Assembly (NCBI GenBank): GCA_002293725.1
Contig: DBDU01000015.1
Coordinates: forward strand, 19,793-83,792
Origin: Patescibacteria group bacterium UBA924
GTDB lineage: Bacteria > Patescibacteriota > Microgenomatia > UBA1400 > PJMF01
Direction: 5' to 3'
DNA: 64,000 bases
Part shown: one piece after another, positions 2,888 through 28,213 of the stretch
Position numbering within the stretch: position 1 is the stretch's first letter
Layout: each line of letters opens with the position of its first letter
Made by a program: the position numbers and the translations under genes
The notes under the pieces: generated by a model
Databases searched by the model: none
Told to the model about the DNA's origin: nothing
What the model saw: the letters and a program-made list of their open reading frames with translations, nothing else

Positions 2888-2956
2888 CGCGGGGTAGTGT
2901 ACGGTGCACGTGGGGCTCATAATCCCACAGGCCGGGTTCGACTCCCGGCCCCGCAA
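2888..2956 (+). tRNA. tRNA with CAT anticodon, initiator-like (C1:A72 mismatch); compact D-arm
   Basis: Cloverleaf traced by hand: acceptor 2888-2894/2949-2955 (6 GC pairs plus C1.A72 mismatch), anticodon stem tgggg/tccca with loop cTCATAa, T-arm ccggg-ttcgact-cccgg; three G:C pairs in anticodon stem; no encoded CCA. Confidence 0.7.
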
Positions 2957-2964
2957 CATTTAAC

Positions 2965-3011: not shown

Positions 3012-3596
3012 TTATCCTTTTCTTTTGAATCGTGCAAAAAAGGTCGTTACTTTTACTTTTAATCTTGGATTACTCTCCACTACGAACCATCCCACTGGTG
3101 CCCCTACACCAATCAACACACCTAAAACCAAGAGTACAAGAATCGTCGGAAACTCTCTCTTTTCCCCAGTGTTTGTAGTCGGTGATGCTGAGGGTTCAGG
3201 ACTGGTGGAAGGACTAGGACTCGCCTCTGGAGATGGTGTCTGAGAAGGTGAAGGCGAAACACTTGGCGAAGGAGTCGGCCGCGGAGTTGGTCTGACTGAT
3301 GCTCTGACTGTAGGACTAGGACTCACAGCTGGACTGGGTGATGGCGAGGGTGACGGTGACGGGCTGGGTGATGGACTAGGGCTGGGACTTGGAGAAGGAC
3401 TAGGTGAAGGAGACGGAGATGGTGAAACGGAAGGCGATGGCGAGGGTGAAGGACTCGGAGAGGCTTCTGGAGAGGGAGTTTGGGCTGCCAGAGGAACCAA
3501 AAGAGCAGCTGTAATCGTCAGAAACATCCACAGAGGAAGTATCACCAAGAAGAACCGAGAACCTTTGATCATTGTTTGAACAGTATACCCTATCAA
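3012..3596 (-). CDS. Secreted (Ser-Pro)n repeat protein with C-terminal TM anchor and basic tail
   Basis: 194 aa; N-terminal signal-like hydrophobic segment, ~40 consecutive SP dipeptides, then TNTGEKREFP-hydrophobic helix-RLKVKV...KRKG; encoded by imperfect hexanucleotide DNA repeat at ~3240-3480. Confidence 0.5.
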   Translation of the reverse strand: MIGYTVQTMIKGSRFFLVILPLWMFLTITAALLVPLAAQTPSPEASPSPSPSPSPSVSPSPSPSPSPSPSPSPSPSPSPSPSPSPSPSPAVSPSPTVRASVRPTPRPTPSPSVSPSPSQTPSPEASPSPSTSPEPSASPTTNTGEKREFPTILVLLVLGVLIGVGAPVGWFVVESNPRLKVKVTTFFARFKRKG

Positions 3597-3607: not shown

Positions 3608-4315
3608 TTACTTCTGTAGCGACATCAAGGCATCTACAAACTGCTGTGGTTCACTAACTTCTTGTGCTTTATACACCCCCATCAATAGCTTTCGCACATT
3701 CGCACTCAGTGTGCTCTCTAAAATATAAATGGGTCGTTTTTCGTGTAAAGCGTGGTTCGCTGTACTCATAGAACCACTCTGTTCTCTCGATACACCGGAA
3801 ATTAACACTGCTTGGCTCAGACCAACGGTAATTCTGTTACGAACCAAGGGCTTTCTGATACTTTTCTGATCATCTGGGATAGGAGGATACTCAGAAACGA
3901 TCGCCGTACCTGGTTGGCGAACCTGTAACATCTGTTGAGCAATACTAAGGTTGGCGGGAGGATCCATTCGATTAATTGACGTAGGAAGTACTCCAACCGT
4001 ATGAGCGTTATTTAACGCCACACGATGACTTTGTGCGTCTACTCCTAAAGCCAAGCCCGATACGATTACTAGAGGTGTTTGAGCAGTATCTTGATAGGCA
4101 ACACACACTTTCTCTAAAAAGACGGCTAAGTGACTTAAAATTTCTGGTGGTACTTCTCGGGAACCGATACTGGCCAGATGAAAGAGCTCAGGAACAACTC
4201 CTGATCCTCGGACCCACAACGATGTAGGCGGCTGCTTAATCGTAGCTAAACGTGCGGGATACTCCCTATCTGTAGGCGTGACGTTCCGTATGCCTTCTGG
4301 AATAATCATATACAA
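3608..4315 (-). CDS. dprA: DNA processing protein DprA/Smf (short form, Rossmann domain only)
   Basis: 235 aa; IVSGLALGVDAQSHRVAL...GVLPTSIN...YPP motif pattern characteristic of DprA. Confidence 0.6.
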   Translation of the reverse strand: MYMIIPEGIRNVTPTDREYPARLATIKQPPTSLWVRGSGVVPELFHLASIGSREVPPEILSHLAVFLEKVCVAYQDTAQTPLVIVSGLALGVDAQSHRVALNNAHTVGVLPTSINRMDPPANLSIAQQMLQVRQPGTAIVSEYPPIPDDQKSIRKPLVRNRITVGLSQAVLISGVSREQSGSMSTANHALHEKRPIYILESTLSANVRKLLMGVYKAQEVSEPQQFVDALMSLQK

Positions 4316-4357: not shown

Positions 4358-7300
4358 TTACACAGCCGCAAATGGGTTGGTAATAGTGGTCATCTCAATC
4401 GTCAGAGGCTTTGCTCCAACCGCAGCTGTCACCATCGACATGGTACCAGCCTTTGCTTCTTTCCACACCATGTTGGGTGAGATGACGTTGATTCCGTACT
4501 TCCCTTTTGGAGCATAGAGCTCGAAGTTCCCATGTGCATCAGACTTGCTAATTGCAACGACACTTCCATCCTGACGTGTTAGCACAATCGTGGCGTTAGC
4601 TATCCCGCGTCGATCGCCATCGGCGATGATTCTTCCTTTAAGGGTCGGTTTCTTAAAGAGGCTGACTAACTTGGGCAGGAGTACTACGGCATACACAACC
4701 AGAATCAAACCATTTATCACGGTTGGGGCAATCCAAAATGCCAGGATTGAAAGTGCTGCGAGTGGATAAACTGCCCACTGTAACCAGTGTAATGTTCTGT
4801 TGAGTAACAACAGCAAGGAGTACTTCAACGAACCACCTTTATCGCCGAGTTTGTTGTCCATTGGAACCAGGACCGCTTGAGATTGTTTAGCTGAAGCAAT
4901 CCCCAACACTTCCCCTTTATAGAAGTCTTTGAAAGAAAGGTGTGCAGGTCGTTGTAGCTTAGTTGGAAAGACATGACCATCATGTCCAACTGTCATCGTA
5001 TACTCGCCTTTTGGCAAGAATGGCTCTAGGTAGACACCATACATGTCAGAAACAAGTGAGACAAATGGGGCTCCAAGTTGATTCTTTCCTTCATAGACAG
5101 AGATAGCCGCGAATGGAATTGGACTACCATTCTTTGTCTGATGGACAAAACCTTTTCGTTGTTTCGCAGGTAGCACCCCAGCCGTGCGGAATAAGTTCAG
5201 CAAAGTGCGTAGATTCAGTGCGGCCATAATTCCAGCTTGTGAAGCAACGGCGAGGGCTAACAACCCGACCACTGCGAGTTCAAGCGCTGCAGCGGCAGCT
5301 AGCCCAATTTTGGGAAGGGTTTTACTTGCTTGGATGGCACCACTAATAAGCGGGGTTGACCAAGGTAGGCGTTCTTGCAAGGCTCGTGCGATCTGCTGCA
5401 CTTCTGCTGGTGCATCTAAAACAGTGACAGTGATCTTTTTAGTGACTACCTCATCTCCTTTGCGGGCGGTAATCGTAATTACTGTTGTATCAAGAGGGAA
5501 GAACTCAAAGCTGCCATTGGGCGAGATCGTTCTTGTTTCTGGATAGTCGATAGTCACCTCATCAGCATCAGGAATGTTCCAAGAGATCTCAGCTTTTTGA
5601 CCGCGAACAATAGTTTGATCTGCTGATGAGACGATCCCAAATGAAGCTGGAACTGGCGTTGCACTAGGGTTAGCTAGGCCACCACCGGCCCCTGCTGTAG
5701 CGGAAGGATCAACTGAAGATGTCGGTGTCGCAGATGCATCTGGTGTGGGAGAAGGACTACTAGAAGTTCCTGAGCTCAACTCTCCTTCGACTTTAATTTC
5801 CAGCGATGCTACTGCTGATCCATACGGACCTGTTCCTGTAATTGTGTAAGTGGTTGTTTCAGTTGGATGCACATAGAAAGTTCCAGTTGGCGCACTCAGC
5901 TGATTATTTCCAGGGTTAATGACAAAACTAGTTAAGTTACTTGAAGCCCAGTGGAGCTCAACTATCTCTCCTTTTTGAATCTTAAACTTACTCGCTGAGA
6001 AGCCCAAGTACGGAGACGGTAAACTTGCACCGGACGTAATGGTGATCGTGCCAGATTCTTGCGTAAACGTTCCATCAGTGACTCGAATTTTAAATGTTCC
6101 CGTCTTGTTAATTTGCACACCCGAGGCTGTGCCTGTTCCATCGTTAATGGCAAGATTGGTAACATTTAAGCCATCAGTAGGGTTCCCTGTTCCAGTATCA
6201 ATCAATGTGAAAGTAACATTGCCATCATAGTTAGGATTTTTGTAGCCAAGGACATCAATGCCTTCTACGGTTACTGAAAATGAGGCGTTGGTAGTCGTAG
6301 CATTTGTAGATGGGGAAACTGATAATCCGGTAGTTGTAGTTGCCAACTCCTCTTCTGGGTAACCAGCATAGGATAAGGAGTAAGAGGTTAGTACTGGTGT
6401 GGCATTGTCTACCTCATACAGCTCAATCTTAAACTTGACTCGATAGTCACTTTGCTGCAACTGCTGCAACTGTCCCAGGGTAACTTCTTGCCACGTTACG
6501 CCGCCATCCGTCGAGACATAGTAACGAATTGGATCACCAGGTGCGGCATACGCTTGGGGAATAAGATGTTCTCCCACAGCTGCCATAAATGAGAAGTTAC
6601 TGCCACCAACTCCGCTGGCATCTGCGATTGGAGCACTAGCATTTGCTTCGGCCACAAAGTTATCTACTACTAACTGTTGAGGTGGACGGGTAGGAATCGC
6701 AACAGCCGCACCACCGTCTACCCAACCGCGTGTCATCGCGGACTTGTAAAAACCTTGATTTTTATTGACGCTATATAAGGTGCTGTAGTTATCCAGGTAT
6801 GTCCAAGCGTTACTTGGGCGGACACCCCCCGTTAAGTCAAACTCAATGAATGTATCGTCAGTTAAGTTTGTATAGGTATCGTTAAAGTTCAGATAAACTG
6901 GGATACTTCCCTCTGTATTGAGCAACAGCTGATCTCCCACTCCGTTTTGACCTTCGATGTACTGAATACCATAAATATTGCGGTAGCCAATTTGGGCAGG
7001 ATAAGCCAGCTGAACAATAGTGTCATCGTCCCAGGAGTATGGATCGTCGCCATCATCGGTGATCACGAATAAACGGCCATTTGAGTTGTTGGCTGTACCA
7101 AAGATTAAACGACCATCAGGATCAAGAATCATTCCGGTAAAGACGTTTTGGTAATCACCATCAGTCGTTACATCCACAATATCGTCACTGGGATCGGAAG
7201 GTGTATTGTTATCTCCCCAAACGTAAAAGCCATCAAAGTAGCTTCCCGCATAGACTCTGTTTTCTGCTGAATCAATCAGAGATCCCAAAAAGGATTGGGA

Positions 7301-9667
7301 GTTCAGATCACTCAGCGCGTAATGAGTGAAGACGTCATCACCTTGGTCCATGTGTGTTCCATTGAGATCAAGGTAAGCAAGATTAGAGTTGCCACCTGTA
7401 GGTGTGGTTGTCATGTAAGCGCCGAGGCGACCACGCTCAAAATCCAACCGAATTGCGCCAATATCTGTATAGGTAAAGTTTTGGAAGCCCACCCCATCGG
7501 TCAGGTTAAAGACATATAACCGATAAATATCTGACATCCATAAATACTTCTTTCCTTCATAAACTCCCAAAGCAAAGCCGTTCAAGTCTGAGCTCATTGC
7601 ATTTACGCCAAACAACGCAGGATAGTTAAATAAAGTACTGACCTCTGTAGTTTTGTTGTATTGGTAAATCTGTCCGCCTAAGTAGTACCACAGCATATTG
7701 CTATCTTGGGGATCTTGCCAAACTTCCCACAGCCCACGGCAGTCTCCATAACGAGGACAGATGTTGGTGTTATTCAGGAGTTGACGAGAAACGGTAATAT
7801 CTTCTTTTAAGCGAAGCTTTCCATTTCCCCAAATAATATTTGAGGAGCTAGGGATGTCTTGGTTGGCAGTACTTTCGAAGTTCTCCTCAAACGTAAACTC
7901 ACCTGGCATTGGATCTTCAGGATCAACAATCGTGAATGTGTCATCAACTACTGCTGAGCGTCCTGCGCCATCAGTACATCGCACATCGACGGTGTGGACT
8001 CCCAAACCCAGTTCAGGCAGATCAACAGAGAATGTTTCTGTGTAGCTGTCATCATAAACACCGCCATTGGGTAAGGTGATCAGTTCATACCCGCCATCAT
8101 CAATCTGATACTCTAACTCACTGATAAAGCTGTTCGTATCTCGATAGGTATTATCAGTACAGCTTCCAGTAATGGTCGGCGTCCTATCGGTTAATGGATC
8201 TGGAGTAACCTCGTCCATACTGACGATAGGATCAGAGTTATCCAGTGCATCAATAATGACAGGGTCGTAATCAGCACTATAGTTGCCAGCTTCATCCTCT
8301 ACACGGAAGTTAACTAAAATCACTCCATCAATATCACCAAAAGAACTTAAGTCCACAGTGAAGTCAAAAGTCTCTTCTGTGGCACCAAATGAAGAGTCAA
8401 CAGGCTGAACCGGGTGATCTGCATAGAACTGCAAAGTTCCTTGAACAACGTGGTAGATCTCATACGCAGCACCAACAATGCCCCGATCATCGGTACAGGT
8501 AATACCCTCGTACTCCAAAATCTTAGAGTAGTGTGGACTTGGATGATTAATAAAACCTTCGGTACATGAAGGAGCTATAGGATCGATATCGACTTCAAAT
8601 GATTGCGAGGCCTCATTGCCCCACATATCACCCGCATAGAAAGTAATAGTATGCGGACCAGCGGAAGGTGAGAACTCAATCTCCCACTCCTTATACGTTT
8701 CAGAAGACTCGTCTTCATCAATCAGTACATAGTTTCTTCCCTCATAGTCAACTTCGTACTGGATGTAACTAATGTAACTGGCATCACTGACCGTTCCTGA
8801 GTACTCCAGTGGATTTTTAGTCACGCCTTCTGGCGCCTCAGTAAAGTTAAAGATGGGCAGGTCTTCTTCATACTCATAATCTTCACCACCACCATCTTCT
8901 AGGTAGGTAAAGTAGTAAGACTGCTGTGACTCATTACCATACGGGTCTCTGGCATAGACAGAAAACTCATGCTCGTTTCCATCGAAAAGATCAGACGGGC
9001 CAGGATAACCGCTTGAAAGATTTAAATCGTAGTATTGGTGGTCATAGTTACTACTGTTTGGATAAACATCCCAAGGTTGTCCGTCAACATAGACGACTAC
9101 TTCTTCTAAATAGTCATCGTAGACTTGAAAGTAATAGGGCATTGAAGTTGATTCAACTTCTCCCTCAGTGTACGTATCAAAGTAAATAACGGGACTACTT
9201 GCATCTGGATAAGGCTCAAATGAGAACTGTTCAGAAATTTCTTCGTCTGCCTCTGTCGTGGCATAGAAAGTAATAGTATGAGGATTAAAGTCAGCGTACG
9301 CTCGTTGATCTAGATAGAAATAAACATACTCATCAATATCATTAAACGGACCAGAATCACTAAACTCTTCTAAACTTACTCGTCCACTGTTATCAATTTC
9401 GTAGGAAATATCGACGATCGCCGACTCATCACTATGGACTGAGAAGTTATAGTAGTACTCCCAATAGCCGTTATTGATATCTGCACCATAAGTATTTGGG
9501 CTCTCTCCGCTGGAATAAAAATCAAAGTAGACCACTGAGTCGGCCATTGCTTGGTGCGTAGCTAGCAAAGTAGCCGCTGTAACAGCAACAAAGATGAAGG
9601 CTGCAGCAAGTAATTTTGCTTGGAGACTGAAGAGTTTTTGTCTAAAGATAAGCATAAGCCAAAACAC
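4358..9667 (-). CDS. Giant cell-surface protein (1769 aa) with signal peptide, multiple Ig/beta-sandwich-like regions, S/T/P-rich linker, C-terminal multi-TM anchor and carboxypeptidase-regulatory-like (CarbopepD_reg) beta-sandwich
   Basis: N-terminal hydrophobic signal; acidic Y/D/E-rich repeats; low-complexity SSGTSSSPSPTPDASATPTSS linker; 3 predicted TM helices near residue 1480-1600; C-terminal GRIIADGDRRGIANATIVLTRQDGSVVAISKSDAHGNFEL motif typical of CarbopepD_reg domain; all +strand ORFs inside are shadows. Confidence 0.65.
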   Translation of the reverse strand: MFWLMLIFRQKLFSLQAKLLAAAFIFVAVTAATLLATHQAMADSVVYFDFYSSGESPNTYGADINNGYWEYYYNFSVHSDESAIVDISYEIDNSGRVSLEEFSDSGPFNDIDEYVYFYLDQRAYADFNPHTITFYATTEADEEISEQFSFEPYPDASSPVIYFDTYTEGEVESTSMPYYFQVYDDYLEEVVVYVDGQPWDVYPNSSNYDHQYYDLNLSSGYPGPSDLFDGNEHEFSVYARDPYGNESQQSYYFTYLEDGGGEDYEYEEDLPIFNFTEAPEGVTKNPLEYSGTVSDASYISYIQYEVDYEGRNYVLIDEDESSETYKEWEIEFSPSAGPHTITFYAGDMWGNEASQSFEVDIDPIAPSCTEGFINHPSPHYSKILEYEGITCTDDRGIVGAAYEIYHVVQGTLQFYADHPVQPVDSSFGATEETFDFTVDLSSFGDIDGVILVNFRVEDEAGNYSADYDPVIIDALDNSDPIVSMDEVTPDPLTDRTPTITGSCTDNTYRDTNSFISELEYQIDDGGYELITLPNGGVYDDSYTETFSVDLPELGLGVHTVDVRCTDGAGRSAVVDDTFTIVDPEDPMPGEFTFEENFESTANQDIPSSSNIIWGNGKLRLKEDITVSRQLLNNTNICPRYGDCRGLWEVWQDPQDSNMLWYYLGGQIYQYNKTTEVSTLFNYPALFGVNAMSSDLNGFALGVYEGKKYLWMSDIYRLYVFNLTDGVGFQNFTYTDIGAIRLDFERGRLGAYMTTTPTGGNSNLAYLDLNGTHMDQGDDVFTHYALSDLNSQSFLGSLIDSAENRVYAGSYFDGFYVWGDNNTPSDPSDDIVDVTTDGDYQNVFTGMILDPDGRLIFGTANNSNGRLFVITDDGDDPYSWDDDTIVQLAYPAQIGYRNIYGIQYIEGQNGVGDQLLLNTEGSIPVYLNFNDTYTNLTDDTFIEFDLTGGVRPSNAWTYLDNYSTLYSVNKNQGFYKSAMTRGWVDGGAAVAIPTRPPQQLVVDNFVAEANASAPIADASGVGGSNFSFMAAVGEHLIPQAYAAPGDPIRYYVSTDGGVTWQEVTLGQLQQLQQSDYRVKFKIELYEVDNATPVLTSYSLSYAGYPEEELATTTTGLSVSPSTNATTTNASFSVTVEGIDVLGYKNPNYDGNVTFTLIDTGTGNPTDGLNVTNLAINDGTGTASGVQINKTGTFKIRVTDGTFTQESGTITITSGASLPSPYLGFSASKFKIQKGEIVELHWASSNLTSFVINPGNNQLSAPTGTFYVHPTETTTYTITGTGPYGSAVASLEIKVEGELSSGTSSSPSPTPDASATPTSSVDPSATAGAGGGLANPSATPVPASFGIVSSADQTIVRGQKAEISWNIPDADEVTIDYPETRTISPNGSFEFFPLDTTVITITARKGDEVVTKKITVTVLDAPAEVQQIARALQERLPWSTPLISGAIQASKTLPKIGLAAAAALELAVVGLLALAVASQAGIMAALNLRTLLNLFRTAGVLPAKQRKGFVHQTKNGSPIPFAAISVYEGKNQLGAPFVSLVSDMYGVYLEPFLPKGEYTMTVGHDGHVFPTKLQRPAHLSFKDFYKGEVLGIASAKQSQAVLVPMDNKLGDKGGSLKYSLLLLLNRTLHWLQWAVYPLAALSILAFWIAPTVINGLILVVYAVVLLPKLVSLFKKPTLKGRIIADGDRRGIANATIVLTRQDGSVVAISKSDAHGNFELYAPKGKYGINVISPNMVWKEAKAGTMSMVTAAVGAKPLTIEMTTITNPFAAV

Positions 9668-9825
9668 AAAAGATTCCCTTTTGTGTTGTCAAAACCAGTA
9701 TGGCTGTTTTTTTACACGAGGGCAACCGTGAGTTTGGAGCGTTTTTGTAGAATAAGGAAGAGAGTCTGTGCTCACGTTTAGCCAAACTCTTGATATAATA
9801 AGCCGTCCACGCTGGTCATAGACAT

Positions 9826-9899
9826 GTCAGGGTAGCTCAACCGGTTAGAGCGCCACACTCATAACGTGGAGGTTGGGAGTTCGAGTCTCCCCCTTGACA
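9826..9899 (+). tRNA. tRNA-Met or tRNA-Ile2 (CAT anticodon), elongator type
   Basis: Acceptor gtcaggg/ccttgac (one G.U), D-arm gctc-aaccggtta-gagc, anticodon loop cTCATAa, T-arm gggag-ttcgagt-ctccc; 74 nt; no encoded CCA. Confidence 0.8.
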
Positions 9900-9920
9900 C
9901 ATTTTTTTAATTTTCGATCT

Positions 9921-10205
9921 TTATTCCCAGCCGTACATTCTGCGGAAAATAGCTGTTAGTGGCGCAGCTTCTTCTGGAGTGTAGACGTGTTTCACAATGA
10001 ACTTACCAACTGTTTTGCCATCACGACGCGTCTGTTCGATGATCTGAATCTCCGCCACTGCAGTCCAGTCTTTTTGAGTCAACCAAATTTGAATGTCATC
10101 AGCTAATACGCTTAGTTCTTTGGCAAACGAGTACTCTTGTCCCACTTGTAGCTGACCGCCAATGTCTGAGCGCAAAATGTTATTTACATTAATCACAAAT
10201 CCCAT
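9921..10205 (-). CDS. Hypothetical protein (94 aa)
   Basis: ORF with no recognised motif. Confidence 0.3.
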   Translation of the reverse strand: MGFVINVNNILRSDIGGQLQVGQEYSFAKELSVLADDIQIWLTQKDWTAVAEIQIIEQTRRDGKTVGKFIVKHVYTPEEAAPLTAIFRRMYGWE

Positions 10206-10235
10206 ACAGACTCCTTTGTCTGTTTGACTATACCA

Positions 10236-10264
10236 AAACGGCTCCCTTTCGGAAGCCGTTTTTT
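10236..10264 (-). terminator. Intrinsic terminator downstream of groEL
   Basis: aaaacggctccc-tttc-ggaagccgtttttt hairpin with flanking A/T runs. Confidence 0.45.
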
Positions 10265-10301
10265 ATTGCTGTTTTTATAAGCAAGTACCTTCAAAAACGT
10301 C

Positions 10302-11936
<1,635 letters not shown>

Positions 11937-12239
11937 TTACTTAATTGTTGCTAAAATATCTTCAAACTTTAAGAACTGGTACTCAACGTCCCCAACCTTA
12001 AAGTCATTTCCACCCCAGCGTTTATAGATGACATGATCACCTTTCTTGACTGGTGAAGAAACTTTTTGACCATCAATAACAGTCTCGCCGCCCACGGCTA
12101 AGACGACACCGTACTGTGGTTTTTCTTCATGATTGTCAGGTAAGTAAATGCCTGACGCAGTTTGTTTTTGGGATTTAGCTGGCTCTACGAGTACATATCC
12201 GGCCAGTGGATGAAGTTGTGAAACAGAAAGATCTGCCAT
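11937..12239 (-). CDS. groES: Co-chaperonin GroES (Cpn10)
   Basis: 100 aa, ...LAGYVLVEP...SGIYLPD...GDHVIYKRWGGNDFKVGDVEYQFLKFEDILATI; 9-nt spacing to groEL. Confidence 0.9.
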   Translation of the reverse strand: MADLSVSQLHPLAGYVLVEPAKSQKQTASGIYLPDNHEEKPQYGVVLAVGGETVIDGQKVSSPVKKGDHVIYKRWGGNDFKVGDVEYQFLKFEDILATIK

Positions 12240-12269
12240 ACGACCTCCTCATGTAAGTAATTAAAATTT

Positions 12270-12296
12270 CTAGCAGCGAATATAGTTGACTGCTAA
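12270..12296. promoter_or_regulatory. CIRCE-like HrcA operator (9-N9-9 inverted repeat) upstream of groES
   Basis: CTAGCAGCG-AATATAGTT-GACTGCTAA; right half matches CIRCE consensus GAGTGCTAA at 8/9, left half 6/9 to TTAGCACTC; located ~30 nt upstream of groES start. Confidence 0.5.
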
Positions 12297-12331
12297 TTTT
12301 CTGTCAAGACGTAAGCAGACTCAACTCAATA

Positions 12332-12994
12332 TTAGTGAGTCAGGGGCGTAGTAGGCTCGCTGAGTACCACGTTGGGGGTGGACTGAGCAATCATGGCAAT
12401 ATCTTCTTTAATGACCGTTTCTTCTTTGCCACGGCTAGTCAGGTGTTTAACTTCAGAAAGCAAGAATCCTTCGCAGTTCAAGCCACGATTTTGGAAGTGA
12501 TAGTTTAGGTCATCTTTGACCATCTGCTCAACAGCTGATCGATTTTGTTTAATTTGATCTAGCGTTAACTCGGAAAAAACGGAAGCGACGCGACTACGAG
12601 AGAAAGGACGAACAACTTTAGAAACCATGTTCTCACCAATGTTCTCCCACAGCTCAGGAGCATTATGGCGATCAATTCGGAAGAGGATCGAACCTTCAAT
12701 AGAGATATCTTTACCATCTTTTGTGCTGGTATTAATTGGTTGATCACCAAGTGACTCTTTATTGGCTGAGAGATCGAAGTCACGACGGATGGAGTACTCC
12801 AGGATCTGAGCATTAAAAAGTTTGGCAATCTGCCAAAAAGGAATCTTTAAGTGAAGTCCTGGTCCCCAAACTCGAGGAAGAACACCTCTCCCACGATCGT
12901 ATACACAGGCAACATGGCCTGGCGGGACAGAAATAAAGAAGCCTCCAACGACTTCATCAACCATGAAAGATACAACTAAGCGGTCAAGCTCCAT
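12332..12994 (-). CDS. SPFH/Band-7 (prohibitin/flotillin-like) domain membrane protein
   Basis: 220 aa, N-terminal hydrophobic anchor followed by SPFH-like core (KDGKDISIEGSILFRIDRHNAPELWENIG...). Confidence 0.55.
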   Translation of the reverse strand: MELDRLVVSFMVDEVVGGFFISVPPGHVACVYDRGRGVLPRVWGPGLHLKIPFWQIAKLFNAQILEYSIRRDFDLSANKESLGDQPINTSTKDGKDISIEGSILFRIDRHNAPELWENIGENMVSKVVRPFSRSRVASVFSELTLDQIKQNRSAVEQMVKDDLNYHFQNRGLNCEGFLLSEVKHLTSRGKEETVIKEDIAMIAQSTPNVVLSEPTTPLTH

Positions 12995-13033
12995 AGTGGA
13001 TGTATTCTACTCCAGTTCTGTGTGTTTGTCTGC

Positions 13034-13816
13034 CTACTTTGTCTGAACGATAACTGTCTCTTCACCCATCTCGGCCAAGCGCTGCTTCTCTTCTTGCTCA
13101 AGCTGATACTGTTCCCATCGTCTACGAACATACTTAAACAGAACAAGCATCAAGCTAATTATGAGCGTAGTAATCACAAATAATTTCTTTCCTGCGGGGA
13201 AACTCATAAACACAATGAAAGATAAAACGGGCAAGATCAGTTGTAAGCGAACGACTTCACCTTTGGCTGGTGGATAAGGTGAAGTTAAGATAGATGCTGT
13301 TTCTACTAGGAAAATGAGCAGTGACTGTAAAAAGTTCAACAGAATGTTGGTGTGAGTAAGGTCATATTTATTTAAAAAGACCAAGTTGAATGGCAGATCA
13401 ACTTTAGGCATAAAGGGATAGATCAGATGAATATCTTCACCTGATAACCCGGTCGCAAACATTCGCCATAGCATGATCGCGATCATCACCTGGACAAACA
13501 GTGAGAATAGCTCACCTACTACTACTCCACGATTGCGGCGGAAAAGTCGCTTAGTCTCGCTGCGCAAACGAATGGGATCGTTGGAATAAATTTGGTTCAA
13601 CTCTTCGTTTCTCTTGACCAACTCTCGCCGTTCTTTCTCGCCGCGATCCTCCATTAAAGAAATAGGTAAAAGTAAGATTCGGATCACAATCGTCAGTAAG
13701 ATAACGGCGATACCCATGTCTGGATTCCCCCGAGTGACGAAGTCCAACATCCAGTAGAAAAAGACCAAAACATTCAACAGCGGCTGGTAGATCAGAACAA
13801 CAAAAAGGTGTGCCAT
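13034..13816 (-). CDS. yidC: Membrane protein insertase YidC/Oxa1 family (short form)
   Basis: 260 aa; LIYQPLLNVLVFFY...GIAVILLTIVIRILLLPISL...ELNQIY.NDP pattern diagnostic of YidC. Confidence 0.75.
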   Translation of the reverse strand: MAHLFVVLIYQPLLNVLVFFYWMLDFVTRGNPDMGIAVILLTIVIRILLLPISLMEDRGEKERRELVKRNEELNQIYSNDPIRLRSETKRLFRRNRGVVVGELFSLFVQVMIAIMLWRMFATGLSGEDIHLIYPFMPKVDLPFNLVFLNKYDLTHTNILLNFLQSLLIFLVETASILTSPYPPAKGEVVRLQLILPVLSFIVFMSFPAGKKLFVITTLIISLMLVLFKYVRRRWEQYQLEQEEKQRLAEMGEETVIVQTK

Positions 13817-13830
13817 GGTGTTTTATATTT

Positions 13831-14175
13831 CTATCCCTGAAGTCTTTCCTCGGGAAATAGCGCGTGAATATATGCTGCGCATTCCTGGAGCGCTCTTGAA
13901 TACTCCGTTAATAACCCTAACATCTCTTGATCAACATCATCGTGTTCAAAGTCCAAGTTAACGTACTCTTGAAAAGCTTTAAACATTTTGAAGGTTGTCT
14001 GTTGGTGTTCTTTCAGCCAACCTTGTTTTTCATCGAGGGGAAGGTTTGCAACCCGCTCTAATTGATCCACAACTCCCTGTAATTGGTGTAGCTTACTAAA
14101 GACGCTAACCTTGAGTGGCGGATGGAGTAAGTGATCTTGGTAAAAGCCAAGTGGCTGTCGTTGCATGCTGACCAA
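13831..14175 (-). CDS. Hypothetical acidic protein (114 aa)
   Basis: ORF only. Confidence 0.3.
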   Translation of the reverse strand: MVSMQRQPLGFYQDHLLHPPLKVSVFSKLHQLQGVVDQLERVANLPLDEKQGWLKEHQQTTFKMFKAFQEYVNLDFEHDDVDQEMLGLLTEYSRALQECAAYIHALFPEERLQG

Positions 14176-15292
14176 TTATAATACAGCAACGATGCATACC
14201 CTAATTGATATCAAACAAACTGATGAAGCCCACGTTATTGCCGAGGCTTGCCGTGTTTTAGCCGCTGGCGGATTGCTCATCTTCCCTACCGAAACAACCT
14301 ATGGAGCGGGAGTCGATGCCACCAACCAGGAAGCAGTCAATAAGCTTCTCTCTTATAAAAGCCGCCGTGAGGGAAAACCTCTTTCCATTGCGGTAACAGA
14401 TCAGGAGATGGCAGCGAAGTATGTTGAGATTACGGACTCGGCTCGTCGTCTGTATGAACGGTTTCTTCCAGGACCAGTCACAGTCGTCTCGCGTAGTAAG
14501 GGTACGGTAGCTGACGGAGTTGCCTCTGAGTACGGAACACTTGGAGTTCGTATTCCGGCATATCCACTGATCTTGAAGATTGTGGCAGCGTATGGCAAAC
14601 CGATCACTGCAACTTCGGCTAATGGCTCGGGAGAAAAACGCCCTTATACGATTCAAGATATCTTTGACGGACTTTCTGAAAAACAAAAATCACTAGTGGA
14701 CTTTGTTTTGGATGCTGGTGAGCTTCCCAAGAATCCTCCCTCTACAGTAATTGATACTACTTTAGAAACACCTGTGGTTTTCCGCCAAGGTAATGTAGCA
14801 GTTGAGGGTGCGACAGATGCGGCGACGGCTCGTTACACCACTCGATCAGAAGCAGAAACACAAGAAGTGGCACAACGGATCATGCTCCAGCACTGGGAAG
14901 ACCTCAAAGAACGCGGTCTTTTTATTGCCCTTCATGGTTCATTGGGCGCTGGTAAAACTGTTTTTGTGAAGGGAATAGCGCAGTTTCTCGGTATTAAGGA
15001 AACACTCACCTCACCAACGTACGTTTTTATGCAGCAGTATGCTTTTAATCGTCATAATGTTGAGGGACGGCTGCATCACTTAGATATTTGGAGACTTGAA
15101 AAACCAGAGCTGATTCATCAACTTGGCATTGAAGAGTTGTTGGGACCTCGAGAAGTGGTTGCTATAGAATGGTCTAGCCTTGCCGATACCGACTTACAAA
15201 ACATGATCAAGAAACATAACGTCAAGTACATTGATATTCATTTGACTGACCAGAAAGACACCCACCTGATTGAAGTGAAGGCTACAGATTAA
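14165..15292 (+). CDS. Fusion protein: threonylcarbamoyl-AMP synthase (TsaC/YrdC/Sua5 domain) + tRNA t6A ATPase TsaE
   Basis: N-terminal half GGLLIFPTETTYGAGVDA...KSRREGKPLSIAV (YrdC fold); C-terminal half LHGSLGAGKTVFVKGIAQFLGI...TSPTYVFMQQY (TsaE P-loop and SPTF motif). Confidence 0.7.
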   Translation: MLTNYNTATMHTLIDIKQTDEAHVIAEACRVLAAGGLLIFPTETTYGAGVDATNQEAVNKLLSYKSRREGKPLSIAVTDQEMAAKYVEITDSARRLYERFLPGPVTVVSRSKGTVADGVASEYGTLGVRIPAYPLILKIVAAYGKPITATSANGSGEKRPYTIQDIFDGLSEKQKSLVDFVLDAGELPKNPPSTVIDTTLETPVVFRQGNVAVEGATDAATARYTTRSEAETQEVAQRIMLQHWEDLKERGLFIALHGSLGAGKTVFVKGIAQFLGIKETLTSPTYVFMQQYAFNRHNVEGRLHHLDIWRLEKPELIHQLGIEELLGPREVVAIEWSSLADTDLQNMIKKHNVKYIDIHLTDQKDTHLIEVKATD

Positions 15293-15296
15293 TACC

Positions 15297-16379
15297 ATGT
15301 CAAACTTTATTCTCTCCATTGATACGTCCTGCGACGATACTTCAGCTGCTGTTACCTCTGGAACTGCGGTGTTATCAAATATTGTGGCTTCTCAGGTAGA
15401 GTTACATAAAGAGTTTGGCGGCGTCTTTCCCACGGTAGCCAAACAAGCGCATCGTGAACGAATCAAACCAGTAGTTGAGTTAGCACTCAAACGAGCAAAG
15501 CTCACTACCGACCAACTAGCCGCGATTGCGGTCACTCAAGGACCAGGTCTCGCTCCGGCTCTTGAAGTAGGTGTAGAGTTTGCCAAACAGTTGGCTGGAC
15601 AGCTGCAACTCCCTTTACTTCCGATCAACCACATTGAGGGCCATGTTTTATCCGTTCTGGCAAAACCAAGTACTAAGCTTGGCTCGCAGCAACCAAACTC
15701 TTTTCCTGCGCTGTCGGTGATTGTCTCTGGTGGGCATACCGAGTTTGTACTAGTAAAAGAGCCAGGTAAGTATCAACGGATTGGTTGGACGGTTGATGAT
15801 GCTGCTGGTGAGGCACTTGATAAGTTCGGACGAATGGTGGACTTGGGCTATCCAGCTGGTCCAGTCGTTGAAGAGTTTGCCAAACGCGGTGACGCAAAAG
15901 CCTTTGCCTTTCCTTTACCGATGACTACCACTGATAACTTTTTGATGAGCTTCTCCGGATTGAAGACAGCAGTCCGAAGAAAAGTCGAAGAACTGGAGAG
16001 TGGGTCAACTCTTTCACAACAACACATTTTTGATTTATGTGCAAGTTTTCAATACGCGGTATTTCATGCCATTACTTATAAATTGAATAAATATTTACAG
16101 AAAAGAAATAATGATCTCACTCAGCCCAAACTCTTCGGTGTTTGGCTGGGTGGTGGAGTAGCTGCCAACACGACGCTAAGAGCTATGTTAAGAGAGACAA
16201 TACGTCCCTACCAGCTCTCTCTTGCTGTTCCATATAGCAAGAAGTTGTGCAGTGATAATGCAGCCATGATTGGCGTAGCAGCTGGGTTTGTTTTAACTGA
16301 GTTTAAGGAACACTCTCATCCAGAAACGCTTCAGATTGAACGACTGCCCAACTGGCAGATTGGATCAACAACCTCTTAG
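15297..16379 (+). CDS. tsaD: tRNA N6-adenosine threonylcarbamoyltransferase TsaD (Kae1/Gcp)
   Basis: 360 aa, SIDTSCDDTSAAV and metal-binding INHIEGHV motifs. Confidence 0.8.
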   Translation: MSNFILSIDTSCDDTSAAVTSGTAVLSNIVASQVELHKEFGGVFPTVAKQAHRERIKPVVELALKRAKLTTDQLAAIAVTQGPGLAPALEVGVEFAKQLAGQLQLPLLPINHIEGHVLSVLAKPSTKLGSQQPNSFPALSVIVSGGHTEFVLVKEPGKYQRIGWTVDDAAGEALDKFGRMVDLGYPAGPVVEEFAKRGDAKAFAFPLPMTTTDNFLMSFSGLKTAVRRKVEELESGSTLSQQHIFDLCASFQYAVFHAITYKLNKYLQKRNNDLTQPKLFGVWLGGGVAANTTLRAMLRETIRPYQLSLAVPYSKKLCSDNAAMIGVAAGFVLTEFKEHSHPETLQIERLPNWQIGSTTS

Positions 16380-16385
16380 CTTTTA

Positions 16386-16425
16386 AGTAAAAAAAGCGAC
16401 CCTCTCGGATCGCTTTTCTTTGTTT
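16386..16425. terminator. Putative bidirectional terminator between tsaD and nrdJ
   Basis: aaaaaaagcgaccctctcggatcgcttttctttgtttcttttt: short stem agcga/tcgct flanked by A- and T-runs; weak. Confidence 0.3.
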
Positions 16426-16434
16426 CTTTTTCTT

Positions 16435-18645
16435 TTAGATCGGACATGCTCCGTTCTCACATTTGAGATGTTCGTAGTCAATGTCTTCCAAGAGCGTCTC
16501 GTCTTTTTCAATCTCGTTCAGCGCTTTCATGAACTCAGAGATAGTCACTGGTTGCTCTGGCTGATACTCATACGCAGTGGAGTCTTGCTGTGGCATGACT
16601 GAACAGCATTTGATTAACCCTTGGTACTTACCCACCATCTCACTGTACTCTTTGAAGCTGACTTTTTTCGGATCGTACTTCAAGGTGTAAGACACTTGGT
16701 TCCCAGTATCTGGCAAAGCATTTCCTTGCTCATCTACACCAACGATCCAGTACTTCTCTAAAAGCATTAACCATTTGTACTGTTCCTCTGGGGTAGCTTC
16801 AGCAGCGGTTACCAGCTCACCATTCATTCCAATTCGGCAGATCAAAGGCTGGGTTGGGAAGCCGACAGCGGTAGACCCTTGGTAGCTTTTTAGCTCTTTA
16901 ATTGGGTAGCCTTTTTTCTGGTATTTTTTAACCATTGGATCATCACTTCGATACTGCACCCAGCGAATGTACTCGCGCATACTTGGCAAGTGAGCCCCTT
17001 CGGTTAAGGCGAACAGTTTAGAGATCGTTCCAGATGGTTTGATCGTAGTATTGGTATGAGGTACTGTAACTCCTAACAACTTGGAGTACTTCTCGGCTTC
17101 ATCAACTACAGCGCGTTTGAAACGAGCAATCGTTAACCAGAACTCTTTTGACTTCTCTTCGTCAATTAAGTCACGGAAAGAAAAGCCAAACTGATTCCAG
17201 GCAAACTCATGAATACCTGTCATCCCAACACCAATTCTGTTGGTACGTTGGACCTCACGGTTGTAGAGACAGTCCATGGTATTGACCCGAATTAAAGCCC
17301 GAGTGGCAGCTCGATAGGCTTCCTCAGCATCGTCGAGAGTAGGAGCAAAGTAAGGAACCACGTCGGCGATGACACAGTATCCACCAAGCATGTTCAACGA
17401 GATCTCACCACATGGATTAGGAATCTGTGAGTAAACCTTGGCTCCTGCATTGCGGGCAACGTGGGCCAACATCTTCTCGGTACGACCAAATGGTTTGTAC
17501 TTGCTGCTCTCGGCATATTTGCCATCTTGATACCCTTCGTAGCCGTCATCATTCTGGACCAGTCGGTGTTGATTAATGAATCCTGGCTCACCTGTCCCGT
17601 CTTCGTAAGAAGCTTTTAGAATAGCCTCCAGAACTTTTCGAGCGTGATTGGTGCGCTGTTTCCAGAACTTGTCATCAACAGCTACCGAGTTGTTTGCACT
17701 CCATAGGAAGCCACCTCGTTTGATGTTAATGAAGTCGAAGACTTCTGGATCCGTCCATACTTTAGTTGCAATTCGGGCACTGCGACGAGCACCGCCAACT
17801 AAGACGCACTCTGCTAAGTAGTGATCGACAAACATGGCTTGTTTCCATGGAGAGAGACCAGAACCTTTGAGGGTAGCGGCTTTTTCAATTGCATTCATTA
17901 ATGGTTTAGGACCTGAGGAAGGACGATTCTGCATTCCTTTAATTGGCATGCCTTTGGCCCGTACTTTGGAGAAGTCTAAGATTAAGATGTCATCTTTATA
18001 TTTTTTCTCGTAGGCCATGATCTCCATCATCTCAATGGCTTGAGCCCAACCTTCACGGCTATCAGGGACTTCAAACCAGTGAACTGAGTCACTCTCGCCA
18101 TACTTGTGTTTGGCGTCACGAACGCTCTCATCAAAGCCCCACACAAAGTCTGGATGGTCATCGGCAATCACGCAGCGAACGTTGGGCATGTTGTCCCAGT
18201 TCACTACACACATATCATCATCGTAGGGACGACCTACACCAGAGCCATTCATCAAAAGGTAGAACAAGATGTACGAAGAAGAAGCAGTACTACAGTTGGT
18301 AAAGACCTCCATGTTACGGTTAGGCTGAGTCTCGTCACCGTGTTGGAGGTGACGACCTGACATCAAGATTGAGCCATTAGCGATGTGTTTTCTCATCAGC
18401 TCGTACTCGGCTTTTTGATGTTTTTTGTCAGTTTTCCCTTTGAGGGCTTTGGTGGTTAAAAGAAGCGTGTTTCCATTCGCTACGCGATCAGCAACTTCGG
18501 TCCAGGTTTCATAACGCTCTTCACCATTTTTCTCTTCAATCTTGCGAAGGTATGTTCGCTTGGCAACAGCCATGCCCATTCCACCATCGAGCTTACGCTC
18601 AATAAATTTCATTTTTCTTTTCGGCAATGCCGCGGCTGCTGTCAT
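16435..18645 (-). CDS. nrdJ: Class II (adenosylcobalamin-dependent) monomeric ribonucleoside-triphosphate reductase NrdJ (L. leichmannii RTPR type)
   Basis: 736 aa; N-terminal AVAKRTYLRKIEEKNGEERYETWTEVADRV resembles RTPR N-terminus; active-site thiyl loop PNPCGEISL; C-terminal redox pair CENGACPI at extreme C-terminus. Confidence 0.7.
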   Translation of the reverse strand: MTAAAALPKRKMKFIERKLDGGMGMAVAKRTYLRKIEEKNGEERYETWTEVADRVANGNTLLLTTKALKGKTDKKHQKAEYELMRKHIANGSILMSGRHLQHGDETQPNRNMEVFTNCSTASSSYILFYLLMNGSGVGRPYDDDMCVVNWDNMPNVRCVIADDHPDFVWGFDESVRDAKHKYGESDSVHWFEVPDSREGWAQAIEMMEIMAYEKKYKDDILILDFSKVRAKGMPIKGMQNRPSSGPKPLMNAIEKAATLKGSGLSPWKQAMFVDHYLAECVLVGGARRSARIATKVWTDPEVFDFINIKRGGFLWSANNSVAVDDKFWKQRTNHARKVLEAILKASYEDGTGEPGFINQHRLVQNDDGYEGYQDGKYAESSKYKPFGRTEKMLAHVARNAGAKVYSQIPNPCGEISLNMLGGYCVIADVVPYFAPTLDDAEEAYRAATRALIRVNTMDCLYNREVQRTNRIGVGMTGIHEFAWNQFGFSFRDLIDEEKSKEFWLTIARFKRAVVDEAEKYSKLLGVTVPHTNTTIKPSGTISKLFALTEGAHLPSMREYIRWVQYRSDDPMVKKYQKKGYPIKELKSYQGSTAVGFPTQPLICRIGMNGELVTAAEATPEEQYKWLMLLEKYWIVGVDEQGNALPDTGNQVSYTLKYDPKKVSFKEYSEMVGKYQGLIKCCSVMPQQDSTAYEYQPEQPVTISEFMKALNEIEKDETLLEDIDYEHLKCENGACPI

Positions 18646-19097
18646 ACATTCCTCCTCAATTTGTCGATTTCCTGCTCAAAGTCTTCCAGACTATCAAAGT
18701 CACGATAAACACTCGCAAAGAGCAGGTACGAGAGCTTATCCATTTTCTTCAACTTGTTGATGACTAAATTGCCGATCTCCCAGCTTTTAACTTCCGTCGA
18801 AGTTTTGGCCCGGAGCTTCCTCTCAACATCGTTAATCATCTCCTCAATCTGGTCCATCGAGATTGGACGCTTCCAGGTTGCCTTCGCAATACCTCGGCGC
18901 AGTTTGTCTCGATTAAACGGTTCGCGTTCCCCATCTTTCTTCACCACATTTAAGTCGACGCCTTCTACCCGCTCATACGTCGTAAATCGTTTTGAGCAGC
19001 GGTCACAGCGTCGCCGACGACGGATGCAGCTTTGGTCTTCTGCATCTCGTGTATCGGTGACTGTAGTTTGGCAGGCAAAGCAATACGGACACTTCAT
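18642..19097 (-). CDS. nrdR: Transcriptional repressor NrdR
   Basis: True start is the internal ATG (MKCPYCFACQTTVTDTRDAEDQSCIRRRRRCDRCSKRFTTYERVEG: Zn-ribbon + ATP-cone); 4-nt ATGA overlap with nrdJ; the longer tracked ORF (to 19238) is upstream read-through. Confidence 0.8.
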   Translation of the reverse strand: MKCPYCFACQTTVTDTRDAEDQSCIRRRRRCDRCSKRFTTYERVEGVDLNVVKKDGEREPFNRDKLRRGIAKATWKRPISMDQIEEMINDVERKLRAKTSTEVKSWEIGNLVINKLKKMDKLSYLLFASVYRDFDSLEDFEQEIDKLRRNV

Positions 19098-19256
19098 ATT
19101 CTTTACAGATTCGATCTTTATTACTCTGCCGATACTGTATTTAGTGTTTTTGTGAGGATTAAATACTAAATATAGTTGTCGTTGGGGAAATAGGATCTCA
19201 CGGAGGGGGGTAAGGGGCAACGATCGTAAATAGATCAAACTATATTAGTTTTGGAC

Positions 19257-19841
19257 TTACTTTTGAGCGATACTCGCTCGAAGTTCCGACATGAGCAAGT
19301 CATGTTCTTTTAAGATTTGATCAAGCTGTGCGCGATGGGCATCGGTCAGCTGAGGAGCCAGTTCCACGAGTTCTTTAGAGTGGTATGCAATGGCTTTAGC
19401 AATGCGCTCTTTCATAGAAGCGTCAACGTCGCTGGCCAGTGCATCTTGAGTCGCTTGATTGAGGTAGTTTTGGGACTTTAATAAAGTTGTCATTGCCAAC
19501 TCTTCATTCTCTTTTTGCAGCAACGCCTTCGCATAATCGAGACGGCGGTGGGCATACTCTATCTTGATGAAGATCTGCTCTTGGGGAGTAGCCGTTTCCA
19601 GCTGTAAACGGTCCATCGCCATGATGACTTTATACAGAGAGTGATCTGGTAAAACTTGGTGCGAAAAGTACAACTTACTCTCTGAAGCAGCCTGCCCCCC
19701 AGTTGAAGAAACTTGAGTGGCACTGAAGAGCGAGATAATTAAGATGCTGCTACCAAATCCCAATCCTAGCAGCGAGAAGAGAAAGCGAGTTCTCATAAGT
19801 AATACAGATGTAAATTGTACCAAGTACTTGAGGAGAGTCAA
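19257..19841 (-). CDS. Hypothetical secreted/anchored helical protein
   Basis: 194 aa, N-terminal hydrophobic segment, Q/E/A/L-rich predicted coiled coil. Confidence 0.3.
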   Translation of the reverse strand: MTLLKYLVQFTSVLLMRTRFLFSLLGLGFGSSILIISLFSATQVSSTGGQAASESKLYFSHQVLPDHSLYKVIMAMDRLQLETATPQEQIFIKIEYAHRRLDYAKALLQKENEELAMTTLLKSQNYLNQATQDALASDVDASMKERIAKAIAYHSKELVELAPQLTDAHRAQLDQILKEHDLLMSELRASIAQK

Positions 19842-19881
19842 ATTAAAGAAGTCTTGAATCGTCCACGTAATCAGACATTAA

Positions 19882-20676
19882 CTATCGAGTATGGACCAAA
19901 AGGACCATTCCCCAGATGGCATGGGACAGTGAGAGGGCGTAAATATTTCTGACTCGAGCAAATAACAACGCTTGTCCAAGGCCAAAGAAGAAGAGTAAGA
20001 AAAGCTGTCCGCCAATCAAACTCAGGTCGAAACGAAGAATCGTGTTAGGGATATGGAAGACTAAGAAGATAACAGCAGTGACGAGTACTTGATTAAGCAA
20101 TGACCAATTTTTGAACTTCTCCATGATCACGGTCATGATCCAGCAGTAGAAGAAAAGTGACTCCCAAAAGCCTGTCATCATTGCTAAAGCAAACTCCCAC
20201 CAGAAGCTATCAGAAGCAAACAGCGGTGCAGCTTGAACGACGACGCCTTTGCGCATCAATGAGGCCAGTGCTCCTGCGAAGCCAAATAGTCCACCAATCG
20301 CTAATCCCATCCATAAACCAGATTGGAGGTAACGGGGACTAATGGTGTCGGCAATTGATTTTGATCGAGTGATGGAAACGTACAACCACACTGGTAGACC
20401 GAAGAACACAGCTTTACCAATACTCTCGTCAAACCAAACTGGAAAACGGAAAAGGTAGCGATATACACACCACATTACAAAAACGAGCAATAATAACGGA
20501 ATAAAAGCAATGTGCTGCGCGATAGGACCTGAGCTAGTGACAGTTACCCGACGAGAAGTCGTCGGTTGTTGGTAACGTCGTCTAAGTTGCACAATCCCTG
20601 GTTTGGCGCTGGAAACCCGCGTAGCTGTACTACGTTTCCCAACTTTACCAGAATTAGCTTTGGGCTTGGATGGCAT
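19882..20676 (-). CDS. Polytopic membrane protein, possible CPBP (CAAX protease/Abi) family intramembrane metalloprotease with basic N-terminal tail
   Basis: FWESLFFY (degenerate EExxxR), FLVFH (FxxxH), SHAIWG (HxxxN-like) motifs in TM helices. Confidence 0.35.
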   Translation of the reverse strand: MPSKPKANSGKVGKRSTATRVSSAKPGIVQLRRRYQQPTTSRRVTVTSSGPIAQHIAFIPLLLLVFVMWCVYRYLFRFPVWFDESIGKAVFFGLPVWLYVSITRSKSIADTISPRYLQSGLWMGLAIGGLFGFAGALASLMRKGVVVQAAPLFASDSFWWEFALAMMTGFWESLFFYCWIMTVIMEKFKNWSLLNQVLVTAVIFLVFHIPNTILRFDLSLIGGQLFLLFFFGLGQALLFARVRNIYALSLSHAIWGMVLLVHTR

Positions 20677-21825: not shown

Positions 21826-21908
21826 AGGGACAGGTCAATGATAGATAATACTCTCCCAATATAGAATGGGTGGCAGCTCGAAACAAGGTACGGTAACGTT
21901 TATCTACT

Positions 21909-24386: not shown

Positions 24387-24401
24387 GAAGAAAGGTGCCT
24401 C

Positions 24402-28195: not shown

Positions 28196-28213
28196 ATAGA
28201 TTTTTTGTCTGTG

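Follow-up and report, generated by a model that had tools for sequence, protein, structure and literature searches.

How is a very large protein held on the surface of a patescibacterial cell, and is a single gene of that length real? Both questions are raised by a minus-strand gene at positions 4358..9667 of the stretch analysed here, which covers 64,000 nucleotides (nt) of contig DBDU01000015.1 from Patescibacteria group bacterium UBA924 (positions 19,793 to 83,792 of the forward strand; hereafter the window). The gene is an uninterrupted open reading frame (ORF) of 1769 codons with a GTG start, and an earlier, sequence-only reading had described its product as a giant surface protein with a C-terminal multi-helix anchor. 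Its claim that this is the largest gene of the window, taking about 8% of it, holds (8.3%, the runner-up encoding 981 amino acids, aa). Patescibacteria, or Candidate Phyla Radiation (CPR), account for a major part of the diversity of bacteria, and the majority are believed to live in attachment to other cells; to our knowledge, little is understood of what keeps their surface proteins on the cell or of how they sense contact. Our analysis indicates that the giant protein itself is ordinary for its lineage, and that the noteworthy element is its C-terminal anchor of three transmembrane (TM) helices and two beta-sandwiches. As judged from sequence comparison, this anchor is an autonomous module common to at least 100 otherwise different surface-protein families.

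The C-terminal module and its distribution

The module was modelled with AlphaFold2 (AF2) from a 58-sequence alignment, with a predicted local distance difference test score (pLDDT) of 88 and a predicted template modelling score (pTM) of 0.75. It starts with juxtamembrane helices (aa 1425-1452, modelled at 1426-1450) and TM1 (aa 1453-1477), encoded together at 5237..5395 (minus strand, as for all parts of the gene below) and recognized from AF2 helices, hydropathy and insertion-energy sums. TM1 is followed by a short amphipathic helix with the motif LQALGLLP (modelled as 10 residues, 1486-1495) and a basic linker, KQRKG (together aa 1478-1504, 5156..5236), identified from AF2 and the family consensus and placed by prediction at the cytoplasmic face. 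Sandwich 1 (aa 1505-1613, 4829..5155) comprises a domain modelled at 1505-1605 with a pLDDT of 91-97 and, in the family consensus, an extension that reads ‘FPTK..RP..L...DFYKGE......IPMD’. The TM2-TM3 helical hairpin (aa 1614-1672, 4652..4828) is supported by hydropathy, AF2, consensus, charge and insertion energy, and consists of a 33-residue helix (1614-1646) and a 21-residue helix (1650-1670) joined by a loop of about five residues with conserved P and N. Finally, sandwich 2 (aa 1673-1769, 4361..4651; modelled at 1676-1761), of the transthyretin-like or CarboxypepD_reg type, forms the C-terminus of the protein. Hydropathy and AF2 concur in placing the hydrophobic helices at about 1453-1477, 1628-1646 and 1650-1670, so that the three TM helices first read from the sequence are retained.

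The sequence-only reading had also recognized a terminal sandwich of the carboxypeptidase-regulatory type, and the Pfam family PF13620 indeed matches the whole protein with 48.8 bits (cut-off 32.3, E=9e-13) in two stretches, the best at 1675-1733. However, that reading missed the second sandwich, which lies between TM1 and TM2 (aa ~1505-1605). When the sandwiches are scored in isolation, sandwich 1 (E=2.1e-5, 25.2 bits) and sandwich 2 (E=4.9e-7, 30.4 bits) each fall just under the cut-off; they match each other with 80% probability in hhalign, and CarboxypepD_reg is matched in 9/9 family members. Both are predicted to adopt a seven-strand transthyretin-like beta-sandwich fold, and they carry a net charge of +9 and no Cys. 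The family consensus contains a Pro before TM1, the LQALGLLP helix after it, the basic linker and sandwich 1, then the stretch ‘FPTK..RP.YL...DFYKGE.F.V......IPMDP’, and after it TM2 with ‘PL..LS’, the five-residue P/N turn, TM3 with a conserved Y, a second basic linker and sandwich 2.

The distribution of the module was examined with a profile of the last ~345 residues, aligned across nine relatives and searched against 1.84 billion cluster representatives. The 5467 matches at E<1e-3 were mostly mere CarboxypepD_reg repeats, and 141 matches reached E<1e-30. After re-scoring of 157 retrieved sequences for the whole module, 104 of them contained the ~320 residues as a single stretch that ends 0-65 residues from the C-terminus, and we regard the modularity and the C-terminal position of this element as established. 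The module-bearing proteins are 261-3658 aa long, so the qualifier ‘giant’ is relative, a length of 1769 aa being mid-sized among them. Their N-terminal parts vary (FG-GAP, Big_13, TSP3_bac, fn3, Big_5; FG-GAP repeats, for example, are present in P0022 and P0036), and a signal-type hydrophobic segment was found in 71 of the 92 members that have an N-terminal part. Apparent ‘module-only’ entries were mostly truncated ORFs, and in the smallest complete ones the module is preceded by a signal peptide and a single small domain. A profile built from the 104 sequences, the giant protein included, aligns its positions 19-342 of 348 to aa ~1437-1764 (325.7 bits, E=4e-99) and finds one copy of the module in the window. 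In another Patescibacteria genome, two tandem paralogues (locus L004) of 3658 aa (10001..20977) and 2300 aa (21561..28463) both end in the module, and the last 1659 residues of the larger one share 45% identity with the giant protein. Four members are taxonomically named, all of them Patescibacteria (two ‘Patescibacteria group’, one Woesebacteria and one Dojkabacteria), and a degenerate pattern derived from the module alignment retrieved only three close relatives from the GTDB genomes.

Neither Pfam nor NCBIfam holds a model for the module beyond the two sandwich matches, no counterpart of the whole module was found among solved structures, and no description of it was found in the literature on Patescibacteria or on CarboxypepD_reg/transthyretin-like membrane proteins. 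As far as these sources were searched, the module is thus uncurated and without earlier description. The domain order that the sequence-only reading called unusual is so when compared to curated databases, but it is common in the lineage and no peculiarity of this gene, the module being present in no fewer than 104 of the 157 retrieved sequences.

The gene, its ectodomain and its neighbourhood

A search of 5.8 billion proteins returned five relatives of 1766-1861 aa that align over the entire length with 55-60% identity, a Woesebacteria relative with 46% identity and three distant relatives of 1820-2161 aa with 35-38% identity. Two relatives are named ‘carboxypeptidase regulatory-like domain-containing protein’ by NCBI (from Patescibacteria and Candidatus Woesebacteria). 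Gene order was compared at three loci from two genomes (L001-L003), of which L002 is cut. Both L001 and L003 show the order TsaD, TsaC/E, YidC, Band_7, GroES, GroEL, a variable gap, the giant gene and DprA, whereas L002 retains the giant-DprA-XerC side only; the giant gene thus lies between GroEL and DprA in the relatives, at the same place as in the window. The sequence-only reading had proposed to look for a split or frameshift in related assemblies, and none was found, the five relatives being aligned end to end and the three loci keeping their order. The giant protein shares 59% identity with its counterpart in L001, the closest relative, against 93% for GroEL and 96% for XerC (L001/L002), and thus evolves much faster than the surrounding housekeeping genes.

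The coding sequence is complete (4358..9667, 1769 aa plus stop), with full-length relatives. An AAGGGA lies 6-7 nt upstream of the GTG start at 9667, and an ATG four codons downstream, at 9655, is the annotated start of the relatives and may be the true one; the choice between them is immaterial. Tandem Repeats Finder (TRF) detected no DNA tandem repeats within the giant gene, and its guanine-cytosine (GC) content is uniform and the same as in the surroundings.

Of the checks that the sequence-only reading had called for, domain annotation and structure prediction of segments were run, topology being estimated from hydropathy and charge, and the results are consistent with a multi-TM anchor; the large exported protein that it described, with an extracellular mass followed by the anchor and a sandwich, is supported. 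We regard the domain composition as established, with the Ig-like assignment of the repeats as putative and the sandwich and propeller folds as model predictions. A Sec-type signal peptide (aa 1-42, 9542..9667) was recognized from hydropathy and sequence, with a basic n-region, a hydrophobic core at aa ~17-38 and a cleavage motif A-M-A followed by D, without a lipobox. The N-terminal region is acidic and Tyr-rich, as first noticed: every 100 residues of aa 100-600 include 20-24 D+E, 1-4 K+R and as many as 14 Tyr. The net charge of the ectodomain is -157, and it holds all six Cys of the protein, four of which (C368, C391, C503 and C564) are invariant among relatives. The signal peptide is followed by five related repeats, N1-N5 (aa 43-584, 7916..9541), of ~105 residues each, very acidic, Tyr-rich and marked by the motif ‘HTITFYA...D..GNE’, with the invariant pairs Cys368/391 and Cys503/564. 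In hhalign, most pairs of repeats reach 80-98% probability and the weakest 39-56% (N4 vs N1/N3, N2 vs N5). Matches to Big_13 (PF19077) in the giant protein are weak (14-17 bits against a gathering score of 27 bits), and Big_13 or Big_3_3 matches occur in seven of the nine family members (best E=4.6e-8); the repeats are putatively immunoglobulin (Ig)-like. N1-N3 represent the most variable part of the protein (39-58% identity in close relatives), and whole N repeats are gained or lost between relatives.

A seven-bladed beta-propeller (aa ~622-982, 6722..7804) is predicted in the middle of the protein, the AF2 model showing seven four-stranded blades around an axis with a pLDDT of 85-94. Its best structural matches are interaction-type seven-blade scaffolds, at 6-13% identity (one at 17%), and no enzyme family is among them. 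The stretches that flank it are the highly conserved aa 585-621 (7805..7915; ‘PGEF..F....IWGNGKLRLKE’) and the strongly conserved aa 983-1107 (6347..6721; 42-76% identity in relatives), which includes a single Asp-box, STDGGVTW (aa 1052-1059). Tentatively, they form the first strands and the rest of one beta-sandwich interrupted by the propeller, as seen in low-confidence parts (pLDDT ~40) of the AF2 model of aa 578-1112. The stalk that follows contains the Ig-like domains C1 (aa 1108-1214) and C2 (aa 1215-1300; together 5768..6346), a low-complexity linker (aa 1301-1344, 5636..5767) and the Ig-like domain C3 (aa 1345-1424, 5396..5635). C2 and C3 are repeats of one another (hhalign 96%), and the assignment of C1 and C2 otherwise relies on sequence pattern, with a weak PDB sequence match to an Ig-type chain in this region; beyond that, the whole-family profile gave nothing meaningful against PDB sequences. 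The long S/T/P-rich linker announced by the sequence-only reading was recovered by composition between C2 and C3; it varies in length and sequence among relatives (5-39% identity) and is a candidate for glycosylation.

Several known families were tried on this protein and rejected. Sialidases typically display several Asp-boxes (SxDxGxTW) in a six-blade propeller together with a catalytic arginine triad and a RIP motif; here the one Asp-box lies outside the propeller, no RIP motif is present and the BNR match (E=0.04) is below the cut-off. SGL (SMP-30/gluconolactonase/LRE-like) proteins have a six-blade propeller with a metal site; the match to PF08450 reaches 13.9 bits (E=0.041) against a gathering score of 26.3 bits, and the model is seven-bladed. 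No enzyme signature was found in the ectodomain. LPXTG proteins end in an LPXTG motif, one hydrophobic segment and a basic tail; LP.TG occurs nowhere in the giant protein, whose C-terminus is a folded sandwich in the AF2 model, and no NCBIfam CTERM sorting signal is matched. In addition, Pfam gave no FG-GAP match of the integrin alpha type, and neither Pfam nor NCBIfam gave a match to SLH or any other S-layer family.

As regards the neighbourhood, a DprA-like gene (3608..4315, minus strand) starts 42 nt past the stop of the giant gene, to which it is adjacent in L001-L003 as well. It is ~60% identical to its relatives, like the giant gene, while GroEL and XerC reach 93-96%. A promoter/terminator scan showed no terminator between the giant gene and dprA, and its signals around the giant gene were no better than chance; co-transcription of both genes is possible. 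Directly upstream of the giant gene lies a variable spot (9668..10301 in the window, 3993..9923 in L001 and 8118..9749 in L003) with additional ORFs of 509, 520 and 881 aa in L001 and of 543 aa in L003, which have no Pfam match and are absent from the window. Between GroEL and the giant gene, a 94-aa protein (9921..10205, minus strand) without family match is 75.5% identical at the equivalent position in L003; by sequence it is a conserved small gene to which the family search assigns no function. Two tRNA genes with CAT anticodon (2888..2957 and 9826..9900, both on the plus strand) bracket the giant gene, dprA and a further gene rich in Ser-Pro, and a strong bidirectional terminator-like hairpin is found at 2965-2994. 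This further gene (3012..3596, minus strand), two genes downstream of the giant gene, encodes a 194-aa protein with a signal-type N-terminus, ~100 residues of near-perfect (Ser-Pro)n and a C-terminal TM helix with a basic tail. Its last 124 residues share 45% identity with translated L001/L002 DNA (tblastn), and TRF reported no DNA tandem repeat in it despite the repeat at the protein level; from its sequence, it has the appearance of another membrane-anchored surface ‘stalk’ protein, of much simpler build. A 375-aa ORF (14165..15292, plus strand) beside TsaD (15297..16379) is apparently a TsaC/Sua5-TsaE fusion, its orthologues in L001 and L003 matching both PF01300 and PF02367. Note that a full-length orthologue of the giant protein (52% identity) was found in a 165-kb contig (L007, CAZNOF010000002.1) titled ‘uncultured Pseudomonadales bacterium’, a label that is probably wrong for this bin or contig.

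Topology of the anchor and rival explanations

Charge counts across the 104 module members gave a net charge of -0.76 before TM1, +2.65 after TM1, +3.67 before TM2, about 0 in the five-residue TM2-TM3 loop and +1.05 after TM3. Insertion energies of the Hessa type, summed simply with scale values from the established literature, have medians of +2.1, +2.6 and +2.8 for TM1, TM2 and TM3 and of +7.7 for the helix after TM1, which is at or below +3 in only 9% of the members; with +7.7 compared to +2 to +3 for the TMs, this helix appears too polar to span the membrane. From the charge counts, the hydrophobicity sums, the AF2 secondary structure and the secreted N-terminus, we infer that the chain, starting from an outside ectodomain, goes in with TM1, has sandwich 1 in the cytoplasm, goes out with TM2 and in again with TM3, and ends with sandwich 2 in the cytoplasm. 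Both sandwiches would thus probably be cytoplasmic, and the contrast between an ectodomain of -157 with all Cys and sandwiches of +9 without Cys agrees with the predicted path. An all-outside topology, in which TM1 pairs with the amphipathic segment in one hairpin and TM2 with TM3 in another, leaving both sandwiches extracytoplasmic and membrane-proximal, where they might bind peptidoglycan or an S-layer, is unlikely in our view. The close structural matches of the sandwiches do all come from extracellular or luminal proteins (carboxypeptidase D, pilins, SdrD B, SusC NTE, NOMO and EMC7), and the segment after TM1 is uncharged and moderately hydrophobic in three members (P0007-P0009). However, this segment is modelled as a helix of 10 residues only and is in most members far more polar than the TMs, the strongly basic flanks after TM1 and before TM2 would end up outside, and the composition of the sandwiches is far from that of the ectodomain.

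The other explanations concern the protein as a whole. A structural envelope protein forming an S-layer-type lattice, with the module as a membrane stalk by analogy to archaeal SlaB, seems improbable: the module is carried by several paralogues whose ectodomains are quite dissimilar, which is more in line with a family of adhesins than with one lattice protein, the domains at the tip evolve rapidly and vary in copy number, and no S-layer family is matched. The idea of a membrane-tethered extracellular enzyme (a glycoside hydrolase, of the sialidase or another type, or a lactonase), with the propeller as its catalytic part, draws on the weak Pfam matches to SGL and to one BNR/Asp-box, and we consider it very improbable, as both matches are far below curated cut-offs, the single Asp-box is outside the propeller, the RIP motif is missing, the seven blades resemble interaction scaffolds and the profile finds nothing among PDB sequences. 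Finally, an artefact of assembly or annotation, in which two or more genes would have been fused by a frameshift or in a chimeric contig, deserves practically no credence. The split or frameshift idea fails because the relatives align end to end with the flanking gene order kept. Moreover, JGI has a record of an identical protein, another eight relatives, of full or nearly full length, come from independent assemblies, the C-terminal module invariably follows an N-terminal ectodomain across ~100 clusters, and the giant gene has uniform GC and no DNA repeats. As far as sequence comparison can tell, the giant gene is therefore not an assembly artefact, and we take its integrity as established.

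We accordingly favour, as the probable reading, that the giant protein is a Sec-exported, membrane-anchored, adhesin-like surface protein of Patescibacteria (CPR; Woesebacteria/Microgenomates-like) with an anchor of cytoplasmic sandwiches; its adhesive function and the role of its cytoplasmic domains are putative. Some points weigh against this reading. The ‘adhesin’ label comes from domain types only, support for Ig-like N-terminal repeats is weak in the giant protein taken alone (Pfam E 0.008-0.07), the sandwich that the propeller would split is modelled at a pLDDT of ~40 only, and the taxonomic range of the module is known from four named members only. In addition, the neighbourhoods of distant family members revealed no conserved partner gene, and no ligand of the inner domains is indicated.

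Proposed role and comparison with known systems

A role in host attachment has been proposed for giant membrane proteins of CPR bacteria, such as those of 1392-4163 aa in Vampirococcus lugosii (PMC8080830). The sequence-only reading had placed the giant protein in the context of an episymbiotic or adhesive lifestyle, which fits both a Patescibacteria/CPR organism and this proposal. According to the matched passages of that work, the Vampirococcus lugosii proteins belong to a similar lineage and are likewise large, membrane-localised and equipped with interaction domains (propellers, Ig/PKD-type repeats), their function being inferred, as here, from domain content only (PMC8080830). The likeness lies in these general features, and the three-TM, two-sandwich module is absent from the matched passages of that account (PMC8080830).

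Both module sandwiches share fold and sequence signature with CarboxypepD_reg (PF13620), transthyretin-like and CnaB-type domains. While the known domains of the CarboxypepD_reg/CnaB type are extracellular, periplasmic or luminal and are not interleaved with TM helices, the two copies of the giant protein alternate with three TMs and have a predicted cytoplasmic location; the DFYKGE...IPMDP extension belongs to the first of them. A seven-blade propeller head on Ig-like legs, with a single TM and a short cytoplasmic tail, is the architecture of integrin alpha. No homology is implied; the giant protein has no FG-GAP signature, its propeller lies mid-protein and not at the tip, its anchor has three TMs and two folded domains, and no beta-subunit partner is known for it. 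The module resembles the LPXTG, PEP-CTERM and GlyGly-CTERM signals in being a conserved C-terminal element that recurs, within one lineage, on numerous surface proteins not related in other respects. However, these signals are ~25-35 residues long (a motif, one TM and a basic tail) and are cleaved by a dedicated enzyme, whereas the module is a folded unit of ~320 residues without LPXTG or NCBIfam CTERM match, and no sorting-enzyme gene was found in the neighbourhood of the giant gene or of distant members.

Under the adhesin-like reading, the signal peptide would be removed and ~1400 highly acidic residues would project from the cell. The membrane-distal tip would be made of the five Ig-like repeats, fast-evolving and variable in copy number, followed by the propeller inserted in its beta-sandwich as the most likely ligand-binding platform, so that the tip repeats and the propeller would be the likely contact surfaces for a host or substrate ligand. 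Three Ig-like domains with the flexible S/T/P linker would serve as the stalk, and the ectodomain would mediate attachment to a host cell or substrate. In the cytoplasmic membrane, the ~320-residue module would act as the anchor: TM1 would cross inward, the interfacial helix and sandwich 1 with its DFYKGE/IPMDP extension would lie on the cytoplasmic face, the TM2-TM3 hairpin would dip outside and return, and sandwich 2 would end the protein in the cytoplasm. The module may thus represent a general-purpose rivet for Patescibacterial surface proteins, in which the helices and inner domains may resist extraction under load, and the inner domains could cluster the protein or couple it to cytoplasmic partners. 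A bolder and rather doubtful proposal is that the module is a lineage-wide coupling device, a functional analogue of integrin-type receptors, in which cytoplasmic transthyretin-like domains beneath interchangeable ectodomains link host contact to the cell interior; this link could operate by clustering, by force-bearing anchorage to an internal structure or by outside-in signalling.

If the all-outside topology were true, the module would still be an uncurated, lineage-specific anchoring device and the giant protein an ordinary large surface protein. If, as we favour, the tail is a common anchor, a single hidden Markov model would offer a handle to catalogue candidate attachment proteins in any CPR genome, the module would provide a defined genetic target in the few culturable CPR, and a transthyretin-like/CarboxypepD_reg fold that is normally extracellular would be used on the cytoplasmic side.

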